Below, one piece after another: positions 1 through 7,841 of a stretch of DNA of 64,000 nt (position 1 is its first letter; each line of letters starts with the position of its first letter). Origin of the DNA: Escherichia coli (GTDB lineage: Bacteria > Pseudomonadota > Gammaproteobacteria > Enterobacterales > Enterobacteriaceae); the NCBI RefSeq assembly GCF_050320075.1, contig NZ_CP190018.1; one strand, 5' to 3'. The position numbers were made by a program, and so were the translations under genes. Below the pieces are notes generated by a model. The model was not told the origin of the DNA. It saw only the letters and a program-made list of their open reading frames with translations, and searched no databases.

Positions 1-2
1 AT

Positions 3-155
3 AACGTTAAGGGCGTTGCAGAGGGTTCTAAGGCCATCAGAATCACAACGGACCAACTGGAACTACTCAAAGCACAGTCCGCAGTAGCAGGTTGCTCAAT
101 GATTCAGGTGTTAAGCGCAAAGGTCCATCAATTAGCGGATAGGCTGGGGGTTTAA
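3..155 (+). CDS. 3' end of an unknown ORF running in from upstream of the window (partial, about 50 codons visible)
   Basis: Open frame from position 3 with no stop until TAA at 153-155; that stop overlaps the ATG at 155 of the next ORF (TAATG). Not in the ORF track because it has no start inside the window. Confidence 0.3.
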   Translation, partial: NVKGVAEGSKAIRITTDQLELLKAQSAVAGCSMIQVLSAKVHQLADRLGV

Positions 156-580
156 TGCTATGCACATTTGATTATCATGCGTTTTATCGCCATAGAGGCC
201 ACCTTGTCCGTGAGAATAGCGGAACATGGAAAGATTTAACTCGTAATGCTGAACCCTTCACACACCAGCAATTAAAATCCCGCTTCTCCAGATGGAAGAA
301 TGCACCAGCAGATACTGGTGATTTTGAGATTATCCATACCTTCGATTATGCCTCAGAAGATGACCTTCACGATGCAATTAAGCTGATTGAAGACTTCAAT
401 ACCTCAGAAGATGTGGATGGTGACAAATATAAATCCCGTGGTAACCGCTATAACCGTGATGATATCACTCAGGCCATAAATGCTGGTCAATCTCAGCGAT
501 ACATTACAGAAAAATATGGTATTTCACGGAGACAGTATTTCTACGTTAAATCATTGATTAATAAAGACAATTCAAAATAA
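155..580 (+). CDS. hypothetical protein, 141 aa, with a C-terminal helix-turn-helix-like segment
   Basis: ORF-track ORF; ATG overlaps the upstream stop (TAATG); C-terminal stretch DDITQAINAGQSQRYITEKYGISRRQYFYV resembles a DNA-binding HTH; AT-rich codon usage like the rest of the element. Confidence 0.5.
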   Translation: MLCTFDYHAFYRHRGHLVRENSGTWKDLTRNAEPFTHQQLKSRFSRWKNAPADTGDFEIIHTFDYASEDDLHDAIKLIEDFNTSEDVDGDKYKSRGNRYNRDDITQAINAGQSQRYITEKYGISRRQYFYVKSLINKDNSK

Positions 581-717
581 CCATCTCAGTAACGGTAGAA
601 TGCACTTTACAGGCAGAGTTGCACCTTAATTTGATAAATTACCTTACCAGCCAGTGCAACTCCCTCTGTAACCCGCATGATTACTGGTCTCAGAATGGCT
701 ATTTTAAGAGGTCTGAG

Positions 718-1065
718 ATGTGTTTTGTAGGAGATTTAAAAATGAACAACTTCCCATTACAGATTTTCGTTGATAACGACACCGCTATGATGGTGCAAAG
801 CTTCAGTGATGCAGGTATTAGCATTGATTTTGACAGGCTGTTAAAGCTAATGGCTGATAATGAAGAAAACGTCTCTGACTTTATTCACTCGGTGGAGTTT
901 AACGAGCCTCGAATGATGTTACCAATTACAGACAGTAATATGAAAAGATTGGTTATTGAGCAAACGAACAAATACAGTATTTCCCCAGAGCAATTTTTGA
1001 AAGGTGCTGTGACAATCCTGTACAGCGATAATATTTTGGTTACGGATTCCGTGAGGGTTCACTAA
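718..1065 (+). CDS. hypothetical protein, about 115 aa (alternative start at 742)
   Basis: ORF-track ORF 619..1065 begins at a TTG; a better start is ATG 718 preceded by AAGAGG (706-711), or ATG 742 preceded by GGAG. No recognisable motif. Confidence 0.45.
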   Translation: MCFVGDLKMNNFPLQIFVDNDTAMMVQSFSDAGISIDFDRLLKLMADNEENVSDFIHSVEFNEPRMMLPITDSNMKRLVIEQTNKYSISPEQFLKGAVTILYSDNILVTDSVRVH

Positions 1066-1142
1066 TGGGCTTAATAATTGCTTGGACGTTGCTTGGCTTA
1101 TTTGTTGGTTGCTGGGTAGGCAGCACAGTAAATAGAAATTGA
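1065..1142 (+). CDS. candidate 25-aa hydrophobic micro-protein (MGLIIAWTLLGLFVGCWVGSTVNRN)
   Basis: ATG at 1065-1067 overlaps the TAA stop of the preceding ORF (TAATG); a single predicted transmembrane stretch followed by a polar tail; too short to appear in the ORF track. Confidence 0.3.
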   Translation: MGLIIAWTLLGLFVGCWVGSTVNRN

Positions 1143-1166
1143 TGTTACCAATCTGTTAAAAAGCTG

Positions 1167-1195
1167 TTGACAAATAACCTTAAGCATGAGATGAT
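1167..1195 (+). promoter_or_regulatory. sigma70-like promoter candidate (TTGACA, 17-bp spacer, TGn-GATGAT)
   Basis: Perfect -35 hexamer TTGACA at 1167-1172, 17-bp spacer, TG at 1187-1188 and a weak -10 GATGAT at 1190-1195; followed immediately by a short GAGAG/CTCTC hairpin and a T-run. Confidence 0.35.
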
Positions 1196-1359
1196 GGTAA
1201 TAGGGGAGAGCAACTCTCTCTTATTTTTCTTTCAAAATAATCCGATGGATGGATATTCTGAATTGGAAAGGTGCAATGCTTTTCGTCATGGCCTTTCAGT
1301 TTAGTCTGAGAGGCTATCTCAAAAAGTGCTTAATCATTCATTGAACCCTTTACAGCTTT

Positions 1360-1388
1360 GCCCTAACTCATGATTAGGGCTTTCTTTA
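1360..1388 (+). terminator. intrinsic-terminator-like hairpin (GCCCTAA / TTAGGGC) followed by TTTCTTT
   Basis: Perfect 7-bp inverted repeat at 1360-1366 and 1374-1380 with a 7-nt loop, then a U-rich tract. Confidence 0.4.
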
Positions 1389-1636
1389 AGAGTTTTTAAA
1401 CAGAGCTTTTAAAGAAAGTTTTTCCTGAAACTTCGTTAACGTTAAAGCAAACCTTCAAAGCCCTTCACAGATGAGGATGATTCCATGAATATCCGAATCA
1501 CCTATGTTTAGGGCTTTTTTCAGCTTTTAAAAAGCATACTTGGCAAACGCCTTTTAAGCCTCTTCTAAGTTCGAGGATGTCAGGTGTGCTTTTTAAAAAC
1601 TGAAACATAAATTATCTTAGAAGAGGAAAGGTATTA

Positions 1637-2341
1637 ATGGCTATCCGTGATGAAAATGAAATGATTATTGAAAACAAACCAAGTGCACTTGATATTCACG
1701 AATTAAGTTTGCGTGAATCTTTTGATAGAGCTTGGCGGGAATCACACGAAGTAAATAAAGGTCCATATATTCCACCAGAACCACTCGAGATTCCAAGAGT
1801 TGAAATTGATTTTTCTATGAACGAACGGTGTGAACTTGATTTGAAGTTGAAGCTACAACGCCGATATTTCCAAGCTATTAAAGACTCTCAAGAAGCAATG
1901 AGAAGTGTTTATGAGAAAATTCAGTCCAAGCTTGAAGACGAAATTGACGAAATGGCTATTTTGATGGAGCTTCAAACCAATCCTTATGCTTATTTCTCTC
2001 GACTAGACCGTGACGGTTGGGGGTATGACCCTGTAGAGATTGGTAAAGTGATTGCAGATTTACCAGAAGGTCAAAGGGTTATTCGTACGGAAAGGGCCAT
2101 CAGAGCGCCACATCAACTGTCTCTAATTGTTGCTGATAAATCACAAGCTGAGCTTGAAGAAATTGCCAAAGAGAAACTGATGAAAGCAAGAGAAAATGAG
2201 ATTAATTTGCTGAAATCAAGACTGGCTAAGCTGATTAGTGACCATCAAGCGCTGGCTAAGGAGTACCGTCAAGAGTTGGCACAGATTATCAGCTTCAATG
2301 ATTTTCTGAGTGTTCCACGAGAATTTAGCAAGGCTGTTTGA
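1637..2341 (+). CDS. hypothetical acidic protein, 234 aa
   Basis: Strong RBS (AGAGGAAAGG) 7 nt upstream of the ATG; glutamate- and lysine-rich with an apparently helical C-terminal half; no motif recognised. Confidence 0.6.
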   Translation: MAIRDENEMIIENKPSALDIHELSLRESFDRAWRESHEVNKGPYIPPEPLEIPRVEIDFSMNERCELDLKLKLQRRYFQAIKDSQEAMRSVYEKIQSKLEDEIDEMAILMELQTNPYAYFSRLDRDGWGYDPVEIGKVIADLPEGQRVIRTERAIRAPHQLSLIVADKSQAELEEIAKEKLMKARENEINLLKSRLAKLISDHQALAKEYRQELAQIISFNDFLSVPREFSKAV

Positions 2342-2364
2342 TTATGAATTAAAAGAGGTGATTA

Positions 2365-2583
2365 ATGTATGAAGACCGTTTGGAAACTATCAAGGCAGTT
2401 TGTGAAAAACTTAAAAACCAACCACGTAAACCAAAAACGGTAAAGAGTAAGCATCAGCCTGTCACCTCAAACAGCAAAATAAAGATTCGCAAAATTCCTT
2501 CGTGGTGCATTGACCGTATTCCGGTTGGTTCAAGAATTATTCGTGAAGATGGTGATTATCATTGGGTATCAGTTGTTGGTTAG
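2365..2583 (+). CDS. hypothetical small basic protein, 72 aa
   Basis: RBS AAAGAGGTGA upstream of the ATG; lysine/arginine-rich; followed by an intrinsic terminator. Confidence 0.5.
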   Translation: MYEDRLETIKAVCEKLKNQPRKPKTVKSKHQPVTSNSKIKIRKIPSWCIDRIPVGSRIIREDGDYHWVSVVG

Positions 2584-2598
2584 TTAGTAAAAATCTAC

Positions 2599-2638
2599 GG
2601 GAGAGATTATCGAGTGATATCGGTAGCTCTCCCTTTTT
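2599..2638 (+). terminator. rho-independent terminator
   Basis: GGGAGAG (2599-2605) pairs with CTCTCCC (2627-2633), followed by TTTTT. Confidence 0.55.
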
Positions 2639-2671
2639 CGTATATGAACACTTAAGAGGTGAAAAATATGA

Positions 2672-4804
2672 ATGAGCAAATTCACAGTTGATAGTTTTAT
2701 CGTTGAATTAAGCTTCAATGAAAACATTATTAAGGGCTTGCAAAGAGTTGAAAAGGCAGCTTTGCAGTCAGCACAAAGAATTGAAAAGAACCTAAATAAA
2801 GGTTTCAGGATTAATACAAAGCAGCTTGATAGTAATTTAACGGCTTCTTTAGGGCAGCTTGAAAGGAAGTTTAATAAGGCCTTTGACAAGATTGAACAGA
2901 GAGCAAGAAATACTAAAGCTTTCCAGTTTACCACCAGATTTAATGACACTGTTAATCCTCCAAAACAACCGAGACAGCCACGAATTAGCGGCAACAGAGC
3001 AATCACAGCAGCTTACTCAGCGAATATGAGCAAGCTAAAAGGCTTTGACCCTATTTTGCAGAAATACATCAAATCTCAGTTTTACGGGCTATCTGCTAAA
3101 GCCGGTTCAATGGATTCTTCAAAATTCAATGAGAAGTTAGCTCAGTTAAACGCTTCAGTCAGAGAAGCAATTGCTAAAGCCAGAGGTCATACATCCACCA
3201 GCATTAATGGTGACAGAGCAGCTAATAGTCTTGATAACCTGTCTTCAGCAGCAGTTAAAACAGCAGGTGCATTTATCTCAATGCAGGCTGTATTAGCCAG
3301 TTATCAGAAGATTATGGAAATTGGTTTACAGCGTGCAAGTGCTGAACGTTCAATTGATTTCGTATTTGATAAAGATGCAGGTCAAGTAAAAGAGTTCACA
3401 AAGTCATTAGCTCAAACAACGGGTTTAGATATCGCTGAACTGCAATCACAGTTTGCTGGTTTTGGTGCTTCAGCTAAAGAGTCTATGGGCATTCAAGGTT
3501 CTGAAGAACTTTTTAAAAATATGATTGGCTATGCTCGTCTGATGGGGAGAAGTGAAGAAGAGATTAAGCGAGCACTGACAGCATTATCACAGATGGCTGG
3601 TAAGGGTCAGGTTATGGCTGAAGAGCTTAAGGGGCAATTAGCTGAAGCTGTTCCTGGTATGGTTCAGGTATTCGCTAAAGCAACCGGAAGGAATGAACAA
3701 GAGCTATTTGATGCCATGAAGAAGGGGGCTTTAAAATCTGCCGATACTCTTCAGAAGGTCACTCAGGAACTGAATAAACAAATCACCGCTAAAGGTGGCT
3801 GGAAAGCTATTTCAGAAAGTACACAGGCACAACTAGGGAACCTGAAAAACTCTTGGAATACCACGCTTGATAGTATCTTCAGAGGTTCTGAAGATGGTCT
3901 GCAAGATTTTACAAGAAGCTTAACAACGCTTTTAAACGCTCTTGGTGGAAGTGGTAAAAGTCTTGGTGAATCTCTTGGTAGTCTCATGACTTCTATGTCA
4001 CATGGTGTCGATTCATTGACTGATATCAGCTACAGGGTAAGAGCATTCTTCGATGAGGTGACATTAGCTTACCGTTCACTAAATGACACTCAGAAAAAAA
4101 TTGTTGATGGTTTATCTGATGGGTTAATTGATGGTTTGAAGATGCTTGCCGTAGCTGTTACTGCTCAAAAGGCTGCAAATGTAGCTGGAGGCTTGTTAAA
4201 CCTTGCAAATGCTGTTACTTCATTCGGTGATGCTGTTAATAAAGCTAAAGCTGGCAAGGCTGGTTCTTCAGGTGGTGCGCTAAATAAAGTTGGTAGAGTT
4301 GTTCTTTATGCTGAGTTGGTGAACTTTGCTCTTGATAATTTAAACCCTGAAGCGGCTAAGAATCCGAACTTACACCAATCAGGTATTGGAACAGAGACAA
4401 ACTTCAACCCTGAATACAAAGGCGATTCATCTAAACCAAACCAAATTAATGATGGATGGGCTAAGATTGGTAGTTCTATCGCTGACTGGTTTAATGGTGC
4501 GGCTAATAAAATTGCTAACTTCCAAGACCCGATGAATAACTTTGTTAATAACACACAATCAACTCCACCAGCTATCACAGGTGACATGGTTAATAGCAAT
4601 GCTCAACTTGCTATGGCTGTATCAGAGTTAGGAAGAAAGGTAGACGCTTTAACAGTAGAAGCTAAGAAGCCTTTATCAGTTAATATCAAAGGTGAAGCAA
4701 TTGTTAGACCGGATGAACCAGCTTTCTTTACTTTCAATCAATCAGCTAATGACCAGTTCACGCAGGATATGCTCTTAAGTTCAAGCTATCCAGAGGAAGA
4801 ATGA
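2672..4804 (+). CDS. phage tail tape-measure-domain protein (TMP-like), 710 aa
   Basis: RBS AAGAGGTG upstream; helical, alanine/glycine/lysine-rich; the segment ALTALSQMAGKGQVMAEELKGQLAEAVPGMVQVFAKATGRNEQELFDAMKKGALKSADTLQKV matches, from memory, the conserved core of phage tape-measure proteins. Confidence 0.6.
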   Translation: MSKFTVDSFIVELSFNENIIKGLQRVEKAALQSAQRIEKNLNKGFRINTKQLDSNLTASLGQLERKFNKAFDKIEQRARNTKAFQFTTRFNDTVNPPKQPRQPRISGNRAITAAYSANMSKLKGFDPILQKYIKSQFYGLSAKAGSMDSSKFNEKLAQLNASVREAIAKARGHTSTSINGDRAANSLDNLSSAAVKTAGAFISMQAVLASYQKIMEIGLQRASAERSIDFVFDKDAGQVKEFTKSLAQTTGLDIAELQSQFAGFGASAKESMGIQGSEELFKNMIGYARLMGRSEEEIKRALTALSQMAGKGQVMAEELKGQLAEAVPGMVQVFAKATGRNEQELFDAMKKGALKSADTLQKVTQELNKQITAKGGWKAISESTQAQLGNLKNSWNTTLDSIFRGSEDGLQDFTRSLTTLLNALGGSGKSLGESLGSLMTSMSHGVDSLTDISYRVRAFFDEVTLAYRSLNDTQKKIVDGLSDGLIDGLKMLAVAVTAQKAANVAGGLLNLANAVTSFGDAVNKAKAGKAGSSGGALNKVGRVVLYAELVNFALDNLNPEAAKNPNLHQSGIGTETNFNPEYKGDSSKPNQINDGWAKIGSSIADWFNGAANKIANFQDPMNNFVNNTQSTPPAITGDMVNSNAQLAMAVSELGRKVDALTVEAKKPLSVNIKGEAIVRPDEPAFFTFNQSANDQFTQDMLLSSSYPEEE

Positions 4805-4967
4805 TTTCTTATATATCCGTGTGCTACGTGATTTCTTCTGAACAGATATACCCACTAAAAATTATTTTTTACGTAGCTCACGCTTAACAGAGAAAATACT
4901 TATATATCAAAGGCTTGGTTAAAAATGATTAAAATACACTAAGCCTTTGAAATCAAAGGAGAATTTA

Positions 4968-5741
4968 ATGATTTACTCTAATCAGATTCGTTACAGTGGT
5001 AAAGATGGCGTTTACTTTCATCTACAAGGCCAGCCAGATAATTTCTTGTCACTATCAGCTACTGAGAACATGGAATTTGACAGCCCTATGATGGTTACCA
5101 CTCAAAATATGCAATCAGGGCAGACTGTCACAGATAATGTAATGCGTTCACCCAGAACTATTTCAATCAGTGGTGTGGTTGTAGTTGGTGAATCCGGTAG
5201 TATCCTTATCTCAAGAGATAATAAGCTGGTGGAAAACTTCATAGACACTCTTGAAAACTGGCGTGACCAGAAGCAAATTATCTCAGTTGTCTGTAAAGAT
5301 GGTATTAAGATTGACGACTCAATTATTACAAACTTTAAAGCCTCTAAAGATGTTGGTATTGCCAATGGTCTTAGAATCCAATTAACTTTTCAGGAAATTA
5401 ACTTTAAAGCTATTGTGGGTCAGACTGATATCTCGGCTGCGACCGGAAGGACTTCTACCACAAGTGATGGTGGTGCTACCAGTAAAAAGAATACAGGGAA
5501 CACTACGACAAGCTTAGGTAACGGTATGTTGATGTGTCAGGAGCTATATAATCGCTCTACGAGTGAACTTACTAATGAGCAACTTCAAGCCCGTATCAAT
5601 TGTGGTAAAAATGTCAGAGTTAAGAACGGAAAAAGCACCTTCTCAGATGCCGCTAATGAGCAAGCTTCAAAGGTGCTTAATAATGCTGGTACAGGTAGTA
5701 CTTTGAAGAAGTATTCTGTTAATCCTAACAAGCGATACTGA
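4968..5741 (+). CDS. hypothetical protein, 257 aa; possibly a distal-tail-like protein, judged only by position after the tape-measure gene
   Basis: ORF-track ORF 4947..5741 begins at a TTG; preferred start is ATG 4968 preceded by AAGGAG. The N-terminal half looks beta-strand-rich and the C-terminal half is Ser/Thr/Gly/Asn-rich. Confidence 0.5.
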
Positions 5742-5755
5742 CGATAGAATCTCAA

Positions 5756-7279
5756 CTATATGATAACCTCATCAACATCTATTAAACCCCTCTCAGTGAC
5801 TTCAGAAAGCGACTGTATAGCCTCTGTAACGTTGTCTGAGGGGTTTTCTGTTATTGGTAAGGTGATTGCTTTACCGTTGTGAAAAGTTACTTTACAGCGA
5901 CGTTTAGCAGTATTTAAAACGACCTCTTTAACAGCACTTTTGATTATCAGTTGTGCTTCAATCCTTCCCGCCTTTGTAGTCAAGTCACAATCAGACAAAC
6001 AACCCACATCAATAGATTTAAGGCGTTGTGTCTCCTTCTCGATATCCGCATCAACTTGTGATAGCTCATTCTTTAGTTGTCTTAGTTTGCTGGTAATAGC
6101 GGACAAGTCTTCAATTTCAAGTGATAGCTGTACCAGCTTTTCAATATTGCTTGAGATGTGTTCACGGTGTAGCTTCAGTGTGTCTATGGTATTCGTCATA
6201 TCGCTATCAAATCGGTCAAGACGAGATAGCAGGGCAAGCAATGTACCATCGGTTTGCTTACGTGAAAGTCCTTTAGCACTACAACGGTTTTCATTACGAA
6301 GAGGACAACGATAAATCCCGTTTCTTGTATCGCTAAAGCCTGTGATAATCAAAGCATGACCACATTCAGAACAACGGATAACACCTTTGAAAAGATTCAC
6401 AGCCATTGGCTTATCTGAAGCAGGTTTTCTACCGTAACGAGCATATGATAGTTGTTGAACTTTGTAGAATGTTGTTTCATCTATAATTGCAGGATAATAA
6501 CCAGATATCTCCTCACAGCCTTTAGGTGTGAAGTAACCAATTACAGAGCGATTCTTCAAAAGGTCTTGCACTGAGGTTTGACCAAACTTACCTGCTTTGT
6601 ACTGGTTAAGCGTCTGGTGACCTTCAGCATTAAGAGTTCTGACAATCTCCCAGATAGACTTACCCTCTAACCGTAGCTGAAAGCACCTCTTCACAGTCTC
6701 CACTTTCTCAGGTATCACAGAGAAGCTTTTACGGTCATCATTAAGCTTAAGCCATGCAGGACAACGCCTAGAAATCTTGATACCAGCTTTAGCAGCTTCT
6801 TTCTTTGCATCCCATGCAGCTTGTATACGCTCAGCCTTACGTAATGATTCCTCATGCGCCCTTTGCATTATCAAAATGCTTTTAATCAGAGCTAACGGGT
6901 CTTTAAGAGATTCCCTTGTGTAATGTTCACCATCGGACAGGGTGACTACATCTACACCAGAGCGAAGAATGTTTCTGAGTAGCTCACTTGCTTGGTCTAC
7001 GTCCTGACGTGAGAGACGGTCTAAACTCTCGATTAGTAGTGTATCACCAGCTTTAACAAGCCCTTTCTCGATAGCGGTTAAAAAGTCACCTAAGCCACCT
7101 TTCAAGTGCTTACCAGTGAACCCGCTAACGCCTAAATCACGAAAAGTAAGGGATTCATCCAGATAGTACTCAGGATGAGCCTTAAGCCAATCAGTGACCA
7201 TCTTAGCCTGTCGTCTTAATGAGTCGCCTCTGGATTGCTTCTCAGATGAAAACCGGATGTAACTGATTGCACGTTTCAT
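5756..7279 (-). CDS. large serine recombinase (phage-type serine integrase), 507 aa
   Basis: N-terminal resolvase-type catalytic domain (ISYIRFSSEKQSRGDSL...LLIESLDRLSRQ), a central recombinase region, a cysteine-rich zinc-ribbon-like motif (CSECGHALIITG...YRCPLRNENRCSAKG) and a coiled-coil C-terminus; convergent with the cargo genes and adjacent to the host junction. Confidence 0.85.
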   Translation of the reverse strand: MKRAISYIRFSSEKQSRGDSLRRQAKMVTDWLKAHPEYYLDESLTFRDLGVSGFTGKHLKGGLGDFLTAIEKGLVKAGDTLLIESLDRLSRQDVDQASELLRNILRSGVDVVTLSDGEHYTRESLKDPLALIKSILIMQRAHEESLRKAERIQAAWDAKKEAAKAGIKISRRCPAWLKLNDDRKSFSVIPEKVETVKRCFQLRLEGKSIWEIVRTLNAEGHQTLNQYKAGKFGQTSVQDLLKNRSVIGYFTPKGCEEISGYYPAIIDETTFYKVQQLSYARYGRKPASDKPMAVNLFKGVIRCSECGHALIITGFSDTRNGIYRCPLRNENRCSAKGLSRKQTDGTLLALLSRLDRFDSDMTNTIDTLKLHREHISSNIEKLVQLSLEIEDLSAITSKLRQLKNELSQVDADIEKETQRLKSIDVGCLSDCDLTTKAGRIEAQLIIKSAVKEVVLNTAKRRCKVTFHNGKAITLPITENPSDNVTEAIQSLSEVTERGLIDVDEVII

Positions 7280-7346
7280 TGTTCACCTCACCAATAGCAG
7301 TTGGGCTTGTACCAACCCCTAGATTGTATCGCTTTAGATGGTGTAT

Positions 7347-7841
7347 TTAAACGTGTCTAATAAAAATCACCCGATTAACGCCGCGCTGATGTAAACCGCG
7401 ATTAAGCGTTTGTTCCTCTTCCCCTTTGGCGAAAAACTGTGGATGGCGGACTTCCACACCATAATTAAATTCGCCGGGAAGGGAATCGAGAAAATGCCAA
7501 AGCGCAGGCAGATCCCGTGGGCCAAATGTGGCAGGCAGTTGCAGCCAGTATTGCCCAATGCGCGGCGCTAACGGTGACATGCGGGTCAAAAATTCAGTCA
7601 CTAAATCATCGCAATGCCGTAATGCTGCCTGATGCGAAATGGTCGCCGGAAACTTAAAACAGAAGCGAAAATTATCTGTGGTCTGCTCACGCCAGCGCAG
7701 GACAACCTCGGATTTCGGCAGGGCGTAAAGCGTGGTGTTGCCCTCCACACAGTTAAAGTGGCGGGCATACTCTTCAAGGCTGGTGATCCCCAACCGCACC
7801 CATTTAGGATGCGACCATTGCGGCAGACCGATGTAAATCAT
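7347..7841 (-). pseudogene. yecE: yecE (DUF72 family), 5' portion only: reading frame interrupted by the insertion
   Basis: N-terminus [29 protein letters not shown] matches recalled YecE; the frame stops after 164 codons (intact YecE is about 272 aa from memory) exactly where GC-rich host sequence changes to the AT-rich element. Confidence 0.7.

Follow-up and report, generated by a model that had tools for sequence, protein, structure and literature searches.

A stretch of 64,000 nt of Escherichia coli DNA (contig NZ_CP190018.1; below, the window) carries at positions 2672-4804 a gene for a phage tape measure protein (TMP). The locus raises the question why a bacterium should keep one long tail gene that is preceded by a terminator and followed by a structured spacer, one further gene and an integrase. 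An earlier note on this DNA had pointed out the arrangement and offered three options, namely, a prophage remnant, a compact or satellite-like element, or a tape-measure-like protein put to another use. The gene was traced here to an island of 12.2 kb in yecE. The island encodes a TMP and a tube initiator (TI) homologous to proteins of virulent Felix O1-like phages, and it is probably a satellite or parasite of these phages that would build chimeric tails like the PLEs of Vibrio cholerae (elements that resemble phage-inducible chromosomal islands). The identity of the 257-aa gene as a phage TI, the Felix O1-like phages as donor and putative helper lineage and the full length of the element (12.2 kb) go beyond the earlier note.

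Tape measure protein and tube initiator

The open reading frame (ORF) at 2672-4804 (plus strand) is unbroken, encodes 710 aa and is a true TMP homologue, which bears out the tape-measure core recognised in the earlier note. It matched Pfam TMP_3 (PF20155) with an i-E-value of 1.1e-18, NCBIfam TIGR02675 with 46.6 bits (cut-off 21.35) and PHROG 4036 'tail length tape measure protein' with 1e-79. In the PDB, the match was 9ndy_F, the TMP gp017 of phage Bas63 (4.1e-65), with an alignment that covered the N-terminal 51 aa and residues 181-564. TMP and TI of the island were also searched against 50,697 phage records with tblastn. Among the matches listed, the best ones for the TMP were Felixounavirus TMPs with 27-32% identity, and none of the records exceeded 60% identity.

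The similarity is distributed very unevenly along the protein. In an alignment of seven island TMPs with the TMP of the Felixounavirus wV8, the first 30 residues showed ~70% identity to the phage protein and a central block (alignment columns 361-420) ~55%. The last 12 aa of this island's TMP (DMLLSSSYPEEE) were 92% identical to the phage. Over the seven islands, these last 12 residues (D-x-LLSSSYPEEE) reached 74-92% identity to wV8, and in three islands the final 30 nt of the gene were 97-100% identical to wV8 on the nucleotide level. Most other stretches of the alignment remained below 35%, and the N-terminal third as well as the C-terminal ~270 columns were below 20%. In the cryo-EM structure of Bas63, the C-terminal 25 residues of the TMP touch the hub and the puncturing apparatus (PMC12609058).

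The next gene (4968-5741, plus strand) encodes the Dit-like TI, with 257 aa when read from the ATG at 4968 and 264 aa from an upstream TTG. It was matched by PDB 9ndy_A 'Tube initiator protein (gp018)' (6.1e-114), Pfam Dit_like (PF21821; 3.7e-19) and PHROG 3721 (5.5e-128). Over its full length it was 68-70% identical to the Felixounavirus gene located directly 3' of the TMP gene, and its matches in the phage records comprised Felix O1, wV8 and ~250 further Felixounavirus records. The gene order in wV8 is tail assembly chaperones (TAC; gp71/72), TMP (gp73), gp74, a small protein, hub, spike, wedge and fibres, with gp74 as the tube initiator. The order TMP-TI of the island is thus the order of adjacent phage genes. 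In a local BLAST of all twelve island proteins against the complete wV8 genome, homologues were found only for TMP and TI. The sole phage relatives of the island tail genes are virulent, non-integrating Felixounaviruses.

Conservation of the TI is likewise regional. The tube-like N-terminal ~185 aa of this island's TI were mostly 53-97% identical to wV8 gp74, and the identity dipped to ~0.5-0.6 in columns 61-90 as well as at the N-terminus. Over the islands, these residues were mostly 60-100% identical to the phage, with up to 100% on the amino acid level in other islands, and the TI genes of two islands shared 92% nucleotide identity with wV8 over 510 nt. Therefore, exchange with the phage appears to be recent. 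The C-terminal extension of ~75 aa is island-specific (17-56% identity to the phage), and its counterpart in Bas63 runs outward through the baseplate. TI hexamers sit on the hub of Bas63 and match the C3 symmetry of the hub to the C6 symmetry of the tube (PMC12609058). Taken together, the pattern in both proteins points to docking surfaces onto phage parts that would have been retained while the remainder diverged.

Signals on either side of the TMP gene agree with the description in the earlier note. An intrinsic-terminator-like hairpin with a U-run lies at 2599-2639 (plus strand) between a 72-aa ORF and the TMP gene. Its stem-loop at 2599-2633 (GGGAGAG...CUCUCCC, then UUUUU) folds at -21.1 kcal/mol with a z-score of -3.1, and it was skipped by a simple terminator scan because its loop is long. 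The structured spacer between TMP and TI (4805-4967, plus strand) is kept in all seven islands and absent from the phage. Its 146 nt at 4805-4950 fold at -37.2 kcal/mol (z -6.6) and contain an invariant inverted repeat, CTACGTG ... CACGTAGC (the CACGTAG arm), with arms ~44 nt apart. A second hairpin of 13 bp at ~4906-4950, just 5' of the TI ribosome-binding site, occurs in six of the seven islands. The spacer could act as an internal promoter or operator, or as an RNA element through which TI is expressed independently of TMP. It is more conserved than the neighbouring TMP coding sequence.

Boundaries and gene content of the island

The record of E. coli YZLc1-3 (L001) is 100% identical to the window and extends it to the left; L001 coordinates are higher by 20,000 than those of the window. 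An empty yecE site served as the reference and revealed a precise insertion of 12,232 bp in yecE (L001 15131-27362) with the 7-bp att core AAAATCA repeated at both junctions. The right copy of the core is located at 7363-7369 of the window and the left copy, outside of it, at L001 15124-15130. Composition, the YZLc1-3 match and the empty-site comparison assign the first 7.36 kb of the window (1-7362) to the island, and its left 4.87 kb (L001 15131-20000), the genes of which were annotated as well, lie outside the window. From the right att core to position 7841, the 5' fragment of the split host gene yecE follows on the minus strand. The GC content of the island is ~0.39-0.42 compared to ~0.51 in the flanks. 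In 5,139 of 5,426 complete genomes, yecE is uninterrupted and attB intact.

From left to right, the island contains a 306-aa ORF on the minus strand, a noncoding region of 1.1 kb with phage-like segments, a Dam-like methyltransferase, a 322-aa replication-initiator-like protein and five small ORFs, two of them in the left arm with 98 and 115 aa (the second with 96 aa according to PGAP). These are followed by a noncoding region of 570 bp, a 234-aa ORF, the 72-aa ORF, TMP, the 257-aa TI and the recombinase. The latter, a large serine recombinase of 507 aa (5756-7279, minus strand), is the island integrase (PHROG 95 'integrase', 1.9e-79); Resolvase, Recombinase and Zn_ribbon_recom Pfam domains were recorded on a 507-aa homologue from a yecE-type island. 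The sequence of spacer, 257-aa gene and integrase after the TMP was hence read correctly in the earlier note.

No head, terminase, capsid, portal, sheath, tube, hub, wedge or fibre gene was found in the whole island including the part outside the window, nor a TAC gene around the TMP gene, and TI is the sole tail gene after it. The statement that no tail-tip module follows therefore holds for the complete element as well. An intact head-tail module to the left, which had been named beforehand as a finding that would overturn the reading, was looked for in the full island and none was present.

Distribution and selection

The TMP-TI cassette was detected in at least 478 of the 5,426 complete E. 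coli genomes (~9%), exclusively on chromosomes, with 72-100% nucleotide identity. In a protein search, over 100 different clusters (formed at 90% identity) matched with more than 91% identity; most are from E. coli, and a few carry the label Shigella or Salmonella. In IMG/VR, TMP relatives were found at four loci on contigs of 7-26 kb.

Seven island copies were compared that cover three integration sites, namely, within yecE, between yciI and tonB and between ymdF and wrbA. All are ~11.5-12.2 kb long and share the right arm, which consists of the 107-aa ORF, 570 bp of noncoding DNA, a 234-236-aa ORF, a 67-72-aa ORF, TMP, a spacer of ~160 nt, TI and the recombinase. The left arms vary and carry small serine recombinase, methyltransferase, HNH endonuclease and rep-like genes. 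Between the three site types, the recombinases share only 29-38% identity. Modules have been shuffled between the att types, as the TMP of this yecE-type island is 84% identical to a tonB-type TMP and their recombinases 36%. Six conserved ORFs are intact in all seven copies and evolve under purifying selection. TMP alleles are 43-93% identical with a dN/dS of 0.18-0.40, and the dN/dS of TI is even lower with 0.05-0.25. The length of the TMP varies between 679 and 722 aa in the seven islands, compared to 742 aa in the phage.

A sizeable minority of islands is broken by IS2, IS3, IS5 or IS21 in the TMP, TI or recombinase genes, among them the copy of E. coli Res13-Lact-PEA14-20 (L012), so that some copies are being inactivated. 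Most sister islands have a second, small serine recombinase near the left end (182-191 aa, the size of a resolvase or invertase). It was located at 4717-5265 in L007, 4899-5450 in L008 and 3701-4249 in L009 and on the minus strand at 3918-4493 in L011 and 4942-5484 in L013. Relative to the rest of the island, this gene is oriented differently in different copies, and the segment may be invertible. In the island of the window it is absent, and the 306-aa ORF occupies its place.

Excision

The attP predicted from the right end, AAAATCA and the left end is identical in two yecE-type islands. The exact 33-mer across attP was found in one metagenome contig, ERZ1090866 NODE_760 (11,473 bp), and not in IMG/VR. 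NODE_760 is a complete circular permutation of a yecE-type island without yecE or any chromosomal flank. Its ends meet inside the rep-like gene with only a sequencing-adapter remnant between them, and it holds TMP, TI, the recombinase and both phage-like noncoding segments described below. A Logan contig of run ERR3453553 was 100% identical across attP; the two contigs probably stem from one sample and count as a single observation made by two assemblers. A circular or concatemeric form of the island hence exists in nature. Another Logan contig (L022, SRR30759968, 11,550 bp) contains an integrated island and ends only 17-30 nt past attL and attR; contig ends of this kind arise in assembly graphs if one sample contains occupied sites together with empty or excised ones.

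Noncoding segments shared with the phage

BLASTN against wV8 gave two noncoding matches, both in the 1.1-kb region 5' of the methyltransferase gene. The first (L001 16934-17096, ~165 nt) matches among phages essentially only Felixounavirus, with 254 matching records. In phage Pr103Blw, direct terminal repeats (DTRs) of 581 bp were defined with PhageTerm and are marked in its record (PMC8303462). The segment is collinear with Pr103Blw 531-694 and therefore spans the inner boundary of the left terminal repeat. Aligned over nine sequences, the segment shows an invariant G-TAC--A-C-G motif that lies exactly across the annotated DTR end (581/582). The motif is flanked by the invariant blocks GATATTT...TGCAAAG, AGATATTTT and TTTTATAAAAATTTT and is present in a single copy per island. 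A homologue of the segment occurs in seven of seven islands, whatever their left-arm genes, and in 533 of the 5,426 genomes. A promoter role is unlikely because leftward and rightward gene sets converge in the corresponding phage region. The most economical explanation of the segment would be a terminus or packaging recognition site, with an origin-type site as the alternative.

The second match (L001 17132-17189, 58 nt) shows 86% identity to an intergenic segment 5' of the leftward wV8 genes 45-41, a group with tail protein and endolysin genes. The match includes an AGATATC-N6-GATATCT palindrome and, further along, the shared motif ACCTTGTCAAG, and it is located ~60 nt upstream of the first gene in the rightward gene set of the island. 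Islands with the other left-arm type carry copies of ~77-82 nt (76-86% identity) of a sequence that is repeated in two wV8 intergenic regions; by BLAST against wV8 they were placed at 5690-5773 in L008, 4486-4562 in L009 and 5892-5973 in L013. Their wV8 sources lie at 59.3-59.5 and 60.7-60.8 kb, beside the DR_4 repeats annotated there and 5' of leftward DNA-metabolism genes. As the wV8 copies differ per island, different islands seem to borrow different phage intergenic sequences. The palindrome and the intergenic copies may be regulatory sites taken over from the phage.

Further ORFs and noncoding elements

The 141-aa ORF at 155-580 (plus strand) belongs to the variable part of the island and gave no PHROG, NCBIfam or PADLOC match. 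The 107-aa ORF at 742-1065 (plus strand) is kept in seven of seven islands with 63-89% amino acid identity and a dN/dS of 0.16-0.5. The 234-aa ORF (1637-2341, plus strand) stands directly 5' of the TMP module in every island and falls into two subfamilies that are ~25% identical to one another. Its AlphaFold2 model (pLDDT 73) consists mainly of long helices with a small beta unit and had no significant Foldseek match in the PDB or BFVD. A marginal DUF7384 match and coiled-coil noise were all that Pfam returned for it, and a PDB profile search returned nothing. The basic 72-aa ORF (2365-2583, plus strand) is found in all islands with an invariant W-C-x-D...P motif. Alignment of the 234-aa and 72-aa proteins with the wV8 TACs gp71/gp72 by hhalign was negative; an island protein could still act as a non-homologous chaperone. 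Among ten island proteins, PADLOC recognised no known defence system and reported the orphan methyltransferase model only. Rfam gave no match at E ≤ 0.1 over the whole island.

The noncoding region between the 107-aa and 234-aa ORFs (1066-1636, plus strand; L001 21066-21636) was compared over the islands. It shows 79% mean column identity with long invariant runs, while the flanking 234-aa ORF genes are only ~25% identical. A sigma-70-like promoter (TTGACA-17-GATGAT) is located at 1167-1195, with CATAAT in most other islands. Terminator-like hairpins follow at 1199-1225 and 1360-1380, and a third conserved hairpin with a T-run at ~1457-1510. RNAalifold predicted a strong structure with zero covarying pairs, since the sequences are near-invariant. 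These features suggest one or two candidate constitutive small RNAs or, alternatively, a candidate cis-acting DNA site. For one hairpin in this region, some islands have a loop sequence that is exactly reverse-complementary to the loop of other islands.

A perfect 11-nt inverted repeat spans 1559-1626, with the arms CCTCTTCTAAG at 1559-1569 and CTTAGAAGAGG at 1616-1626. The ribosome-binding region of the 234-aa ORF is formed by the downstream arm, and the repeat may form a translational control hairpin. A CTTAGAAGAGG-type sequence is also present 5' of the TMP gene in wV8. An antisense role of the noncoding region towards wV8 was considered and rejected, given that a short-word search produced chance-level 10-15-mers only. 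A 14-mer near the wV8 TMP start was dismissed as an antisense target too, as it is better explained as an arm of the cis hairpin over the ribosome-binding site of the 234-aa ORF. Outside the island, a low-GC patch at 52-56 kb of the window is ordinary E. coli core sequence with small genes.

Proposed life cycle and alternative explanations

From these features we infer the following course for a PLE-like satellite. The large serine recombinase would place the island in yecE, and those of sister elements next to tonB or wrbA. Infection by a Felixounavirus would switch it on via promoter or operator sequences copied from the phage, whereupon the island would excise and replicate with its own initiator-like protein. 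It would then express its own TMP and TI, in which the putative docking surfaces (N-terminus and C-terminal tip of the TMP, tube-like core of TI) are kept. The resulting tails would be chimeric, with TMP and TI from the island and sheath, tube, hub and fibres from the phage. The ~165-nt mimic of the DTR boundary could let phage enzymes, most likely the terminase, act on island DNA, which would be packaged and transduced at the phage's cost. That the island is a satellite or parasite of this type is considered probable. The wider proposal of an undescribed satellite family of E. coli, Shigella and Salmonella that exploits virulent Felix O1-like phages, uses helper capsids, builds chimeric tails and lowers phage yield is held with even confidence.

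Several observations weigh against this satellite model. The link between island and phage is one of sequence, and the putative promoter mimicry is likewise read from similarity to phage DNA. A 12-kb genome in a head of ~88 kb needs small capsids or multimer packaging; that 7 × 12.2 kb amount to ~86 kb is arithmetic and not evidence. No TAC, capsid-size remodelling gene or small terminase was recognised in the island in the PHROG and NCBIfam scans, and profile, fold-match or chaperone-alignment searches assigned no function to the 234-aa, 72-aa and 107-aa ORFs. Replication-initiator PHROG matches of the 322-aa protein are weak (E 1.7e-7 to 3e-3) and clear iterons were not found, so its assignment is a weak one. 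Neither a second copy of the terminus motif nor a mimic of the left DTR boundary was found in the island. Only the right DTR boundary is mimicked, and the segment could therefore be an origin or regulatory site and not a packaging site. Finally, the excised circle comes from one sample of unspecified type and speaks for excision only, not for packaging.

A rival explanation is a defence-only island, in which TMP and TI act as dominant-negative decoys that enter the hub and tube-initiation complex of the phage and poison tail assembly, an abortive interference that would protect the clonal population and in which the island is never packaged. Conserved docking termini of the TMP and a conserved TI core would serve poisoning as well as chimeric assembly, interference with tail assembly is a documented defence (Tai, PMC11364771; Rta of PLE11, PMC11838301), and packaging or capsid genes were not recognised by PHROG or NCBIfam. 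However, a decoy would not need a TMP whose length is held at 679-722 aa (742 aa in the phage) although its alleles are 43-93% identical, nor purifying selection over the whole protein. It would leave the DTR-terminus mimic conserved in every island without a role, and it does not account for an element that is mobile, as evidenced by three att sites, shuffled modules and an excised circle. PADLOC, moreover, finds no known defence gene beyond the orphan methyltransferase. Defence as the only function is thus rather unlikely, but by analogy with PLEs, which have both, satellite and defence roles would not exclude each other. Less likely still is that TMP and TI were retained by an integrative and perhaps mobilisable element for a use unrelated to parasitism of phage particles, e.g., superinfection exclusion at the step of DNA entry or a helper-independent role of a membrane-active TMP. 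TMPs are ejected into the envelope and form a DNA conduit, as Cumby et al. 2015 reportedly described, so an envelope-located TMP could plausibly block DNA entry, and most island genes have no assigned function. Such a use gives no account of the constant co-inheritance of TI, a purely structural ring between hub and tube, of the fact that the conserved parts of the TMP are the ends contacting virion partners, or of the conserved copy of the phage terminus region.

Least probable by far is a decaying prophage remnant that has lost its head and most tail genes and is left with TMP, one baseplate gene and the integrase. The order of TMP, baseplate gene and integrase at the classical prophage site yecE superficially resembles a prophage end, and some copies in other genomes are IS-disrupted. 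Deletion does not explain a precise insertion of 12,232 bp with a 7-bp core, an equal architecture of ~11.5-12.2 kb that recurs at three att sites, each with a recombinase of its own (29-38% identity between them), or six conserved ORFs that are intact in seven copies with a dN/dS well below 1. The phage relatives are strictly virulent, a TMP of the island type is present in no phage record (all <60%; 29-32% at best among the matches listed), and an excised circular form exists. The remnant named among the three options in the earlier note was abandoned on these grounds, while its compact or satellite-like element is well supported.

If the satellite model is correct, about one in eleven complete E. 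coli genomes would carry an island that hijacks or sabotages the tail assembly of Felix O1-like phages, and with it a factor in phage host range and therapeutic failure that has gone unrecognised. These phages are classical typing phages, and their use in biocontrol and therapy against Salmonella and E. coli has been proposed widely. Chimeric tails with a satellite TMP, demonstrated so far only for PLE and ICP1, would become a general strategy against virulent myophages, and the island would be the first PLE-style system outside Vibrio, in the best-studied bacterium. The DTR-boundary mimic would also show where Felixounaviruses have their packaging or terminus recognition site, which is as yet undefined. 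The system would be tractable with E. coli K-12 genetics, the BASEL phages Bas61-63 and the solved virion structure of Bas63, and could help to explain what a satellite gains from a tape measure of its own and which surfaces of TMP and TI decide on the choice of partner.

Comparison with known systems

The closest counterpart of the two tail genes is the tail module of Felixounaviruses (wV8 gp73-gp74; Bas63 gp17/gp18; PDB 9ndy). TMP and TI of the island are homologous to it and in the same order, and the island keeps the TMP termini and the tube-like domain of TI. In the phage, the two genes abut within a head-tail operon of ~20 kb, with TAC genes before and hub, spike, wedge and fibre genes after them, whereas in the island they are split by the structured, conserved spacer of ~160 nt and the phage neighbour genes are absent. 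Most of the island TMP is, in addition, less than 35% identical to the phage TMP.

Small integrated elements of ~10-15 kb that use a helper virion are known in Enterobacteria as P4-like elements, phage-inducible chromosomal islands (PICIs) and capsid-forming PICIs (cf-PICIs). P4 carries a copy of the packaging site of its helper, to which the DTR-boundary mimic of the island is a parallel. These elements have tyrosine integrases and temperate helpers, whereas the island has a serine recombinase. Their hallmark genes are psu, sid, delta and alpha in P4, alpA, pri-rep and ppi or terS in PICIs and capsid, portal, protease and terS in cf-PICIs; none of them was found in the island by PHROG and NCBIfam scans. 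Tai systems and Rta of PLE11 resemble the island in the targeted process, the assembly of the phage tail around the TMP. They are, however, small inhibitors without homology to structural proteins, whereas the island encodes full-length structural homologues.

In a literature search on satellites combined with yecE, Felix O1, Ounavirinae or Felixounavirus, which was incomplete in its coverage, no description of the island was found. PLEs are islands of V. cholerae that integrate by means of a large serine recombinase and live as parasites of the virulent myophage ICP1 (PMC11838301). All of them encode their own TMP and TAC and some a baseplate hub protein (BhuB), with 19-41% identity to the ICP1 proteins (PMC11838301). 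TMP and hub of the PLE replace the phage proteins in the particles, which leads to chimeric tails, and deletion of tmp reduced transduction by 96-99.9% (PMC11838301). The same study reported predicted tmp genes in some other putative satellites and did not describe the E. coli island (PMC11838301).

The island differs from PLEs in host and helper lineage (E. coli and, putatively, Felixounavirus), in its smaller size of 11.5-12.2 kb and in its second tail gene, which is TI and not the hub BhuB. No TAC, TcaP-like capsid scaffold, RepA or other PLE gene was named in the PHROG and NCBIfam scans, and the likeness is one of organisation. It consists in a chromosomal island with a large serine recombinase and a virulent myovirus as the related phage, a large noncoding region, to which the replication initiator of PLEs would add if the weakly matched candidate of the island is one, and a diverged TMP of its own with one baseplate-proximal protein, sheath, tube and fibres being left to the phage. 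The island family thus looks like an undescribed variant of the PLE-type strategy.

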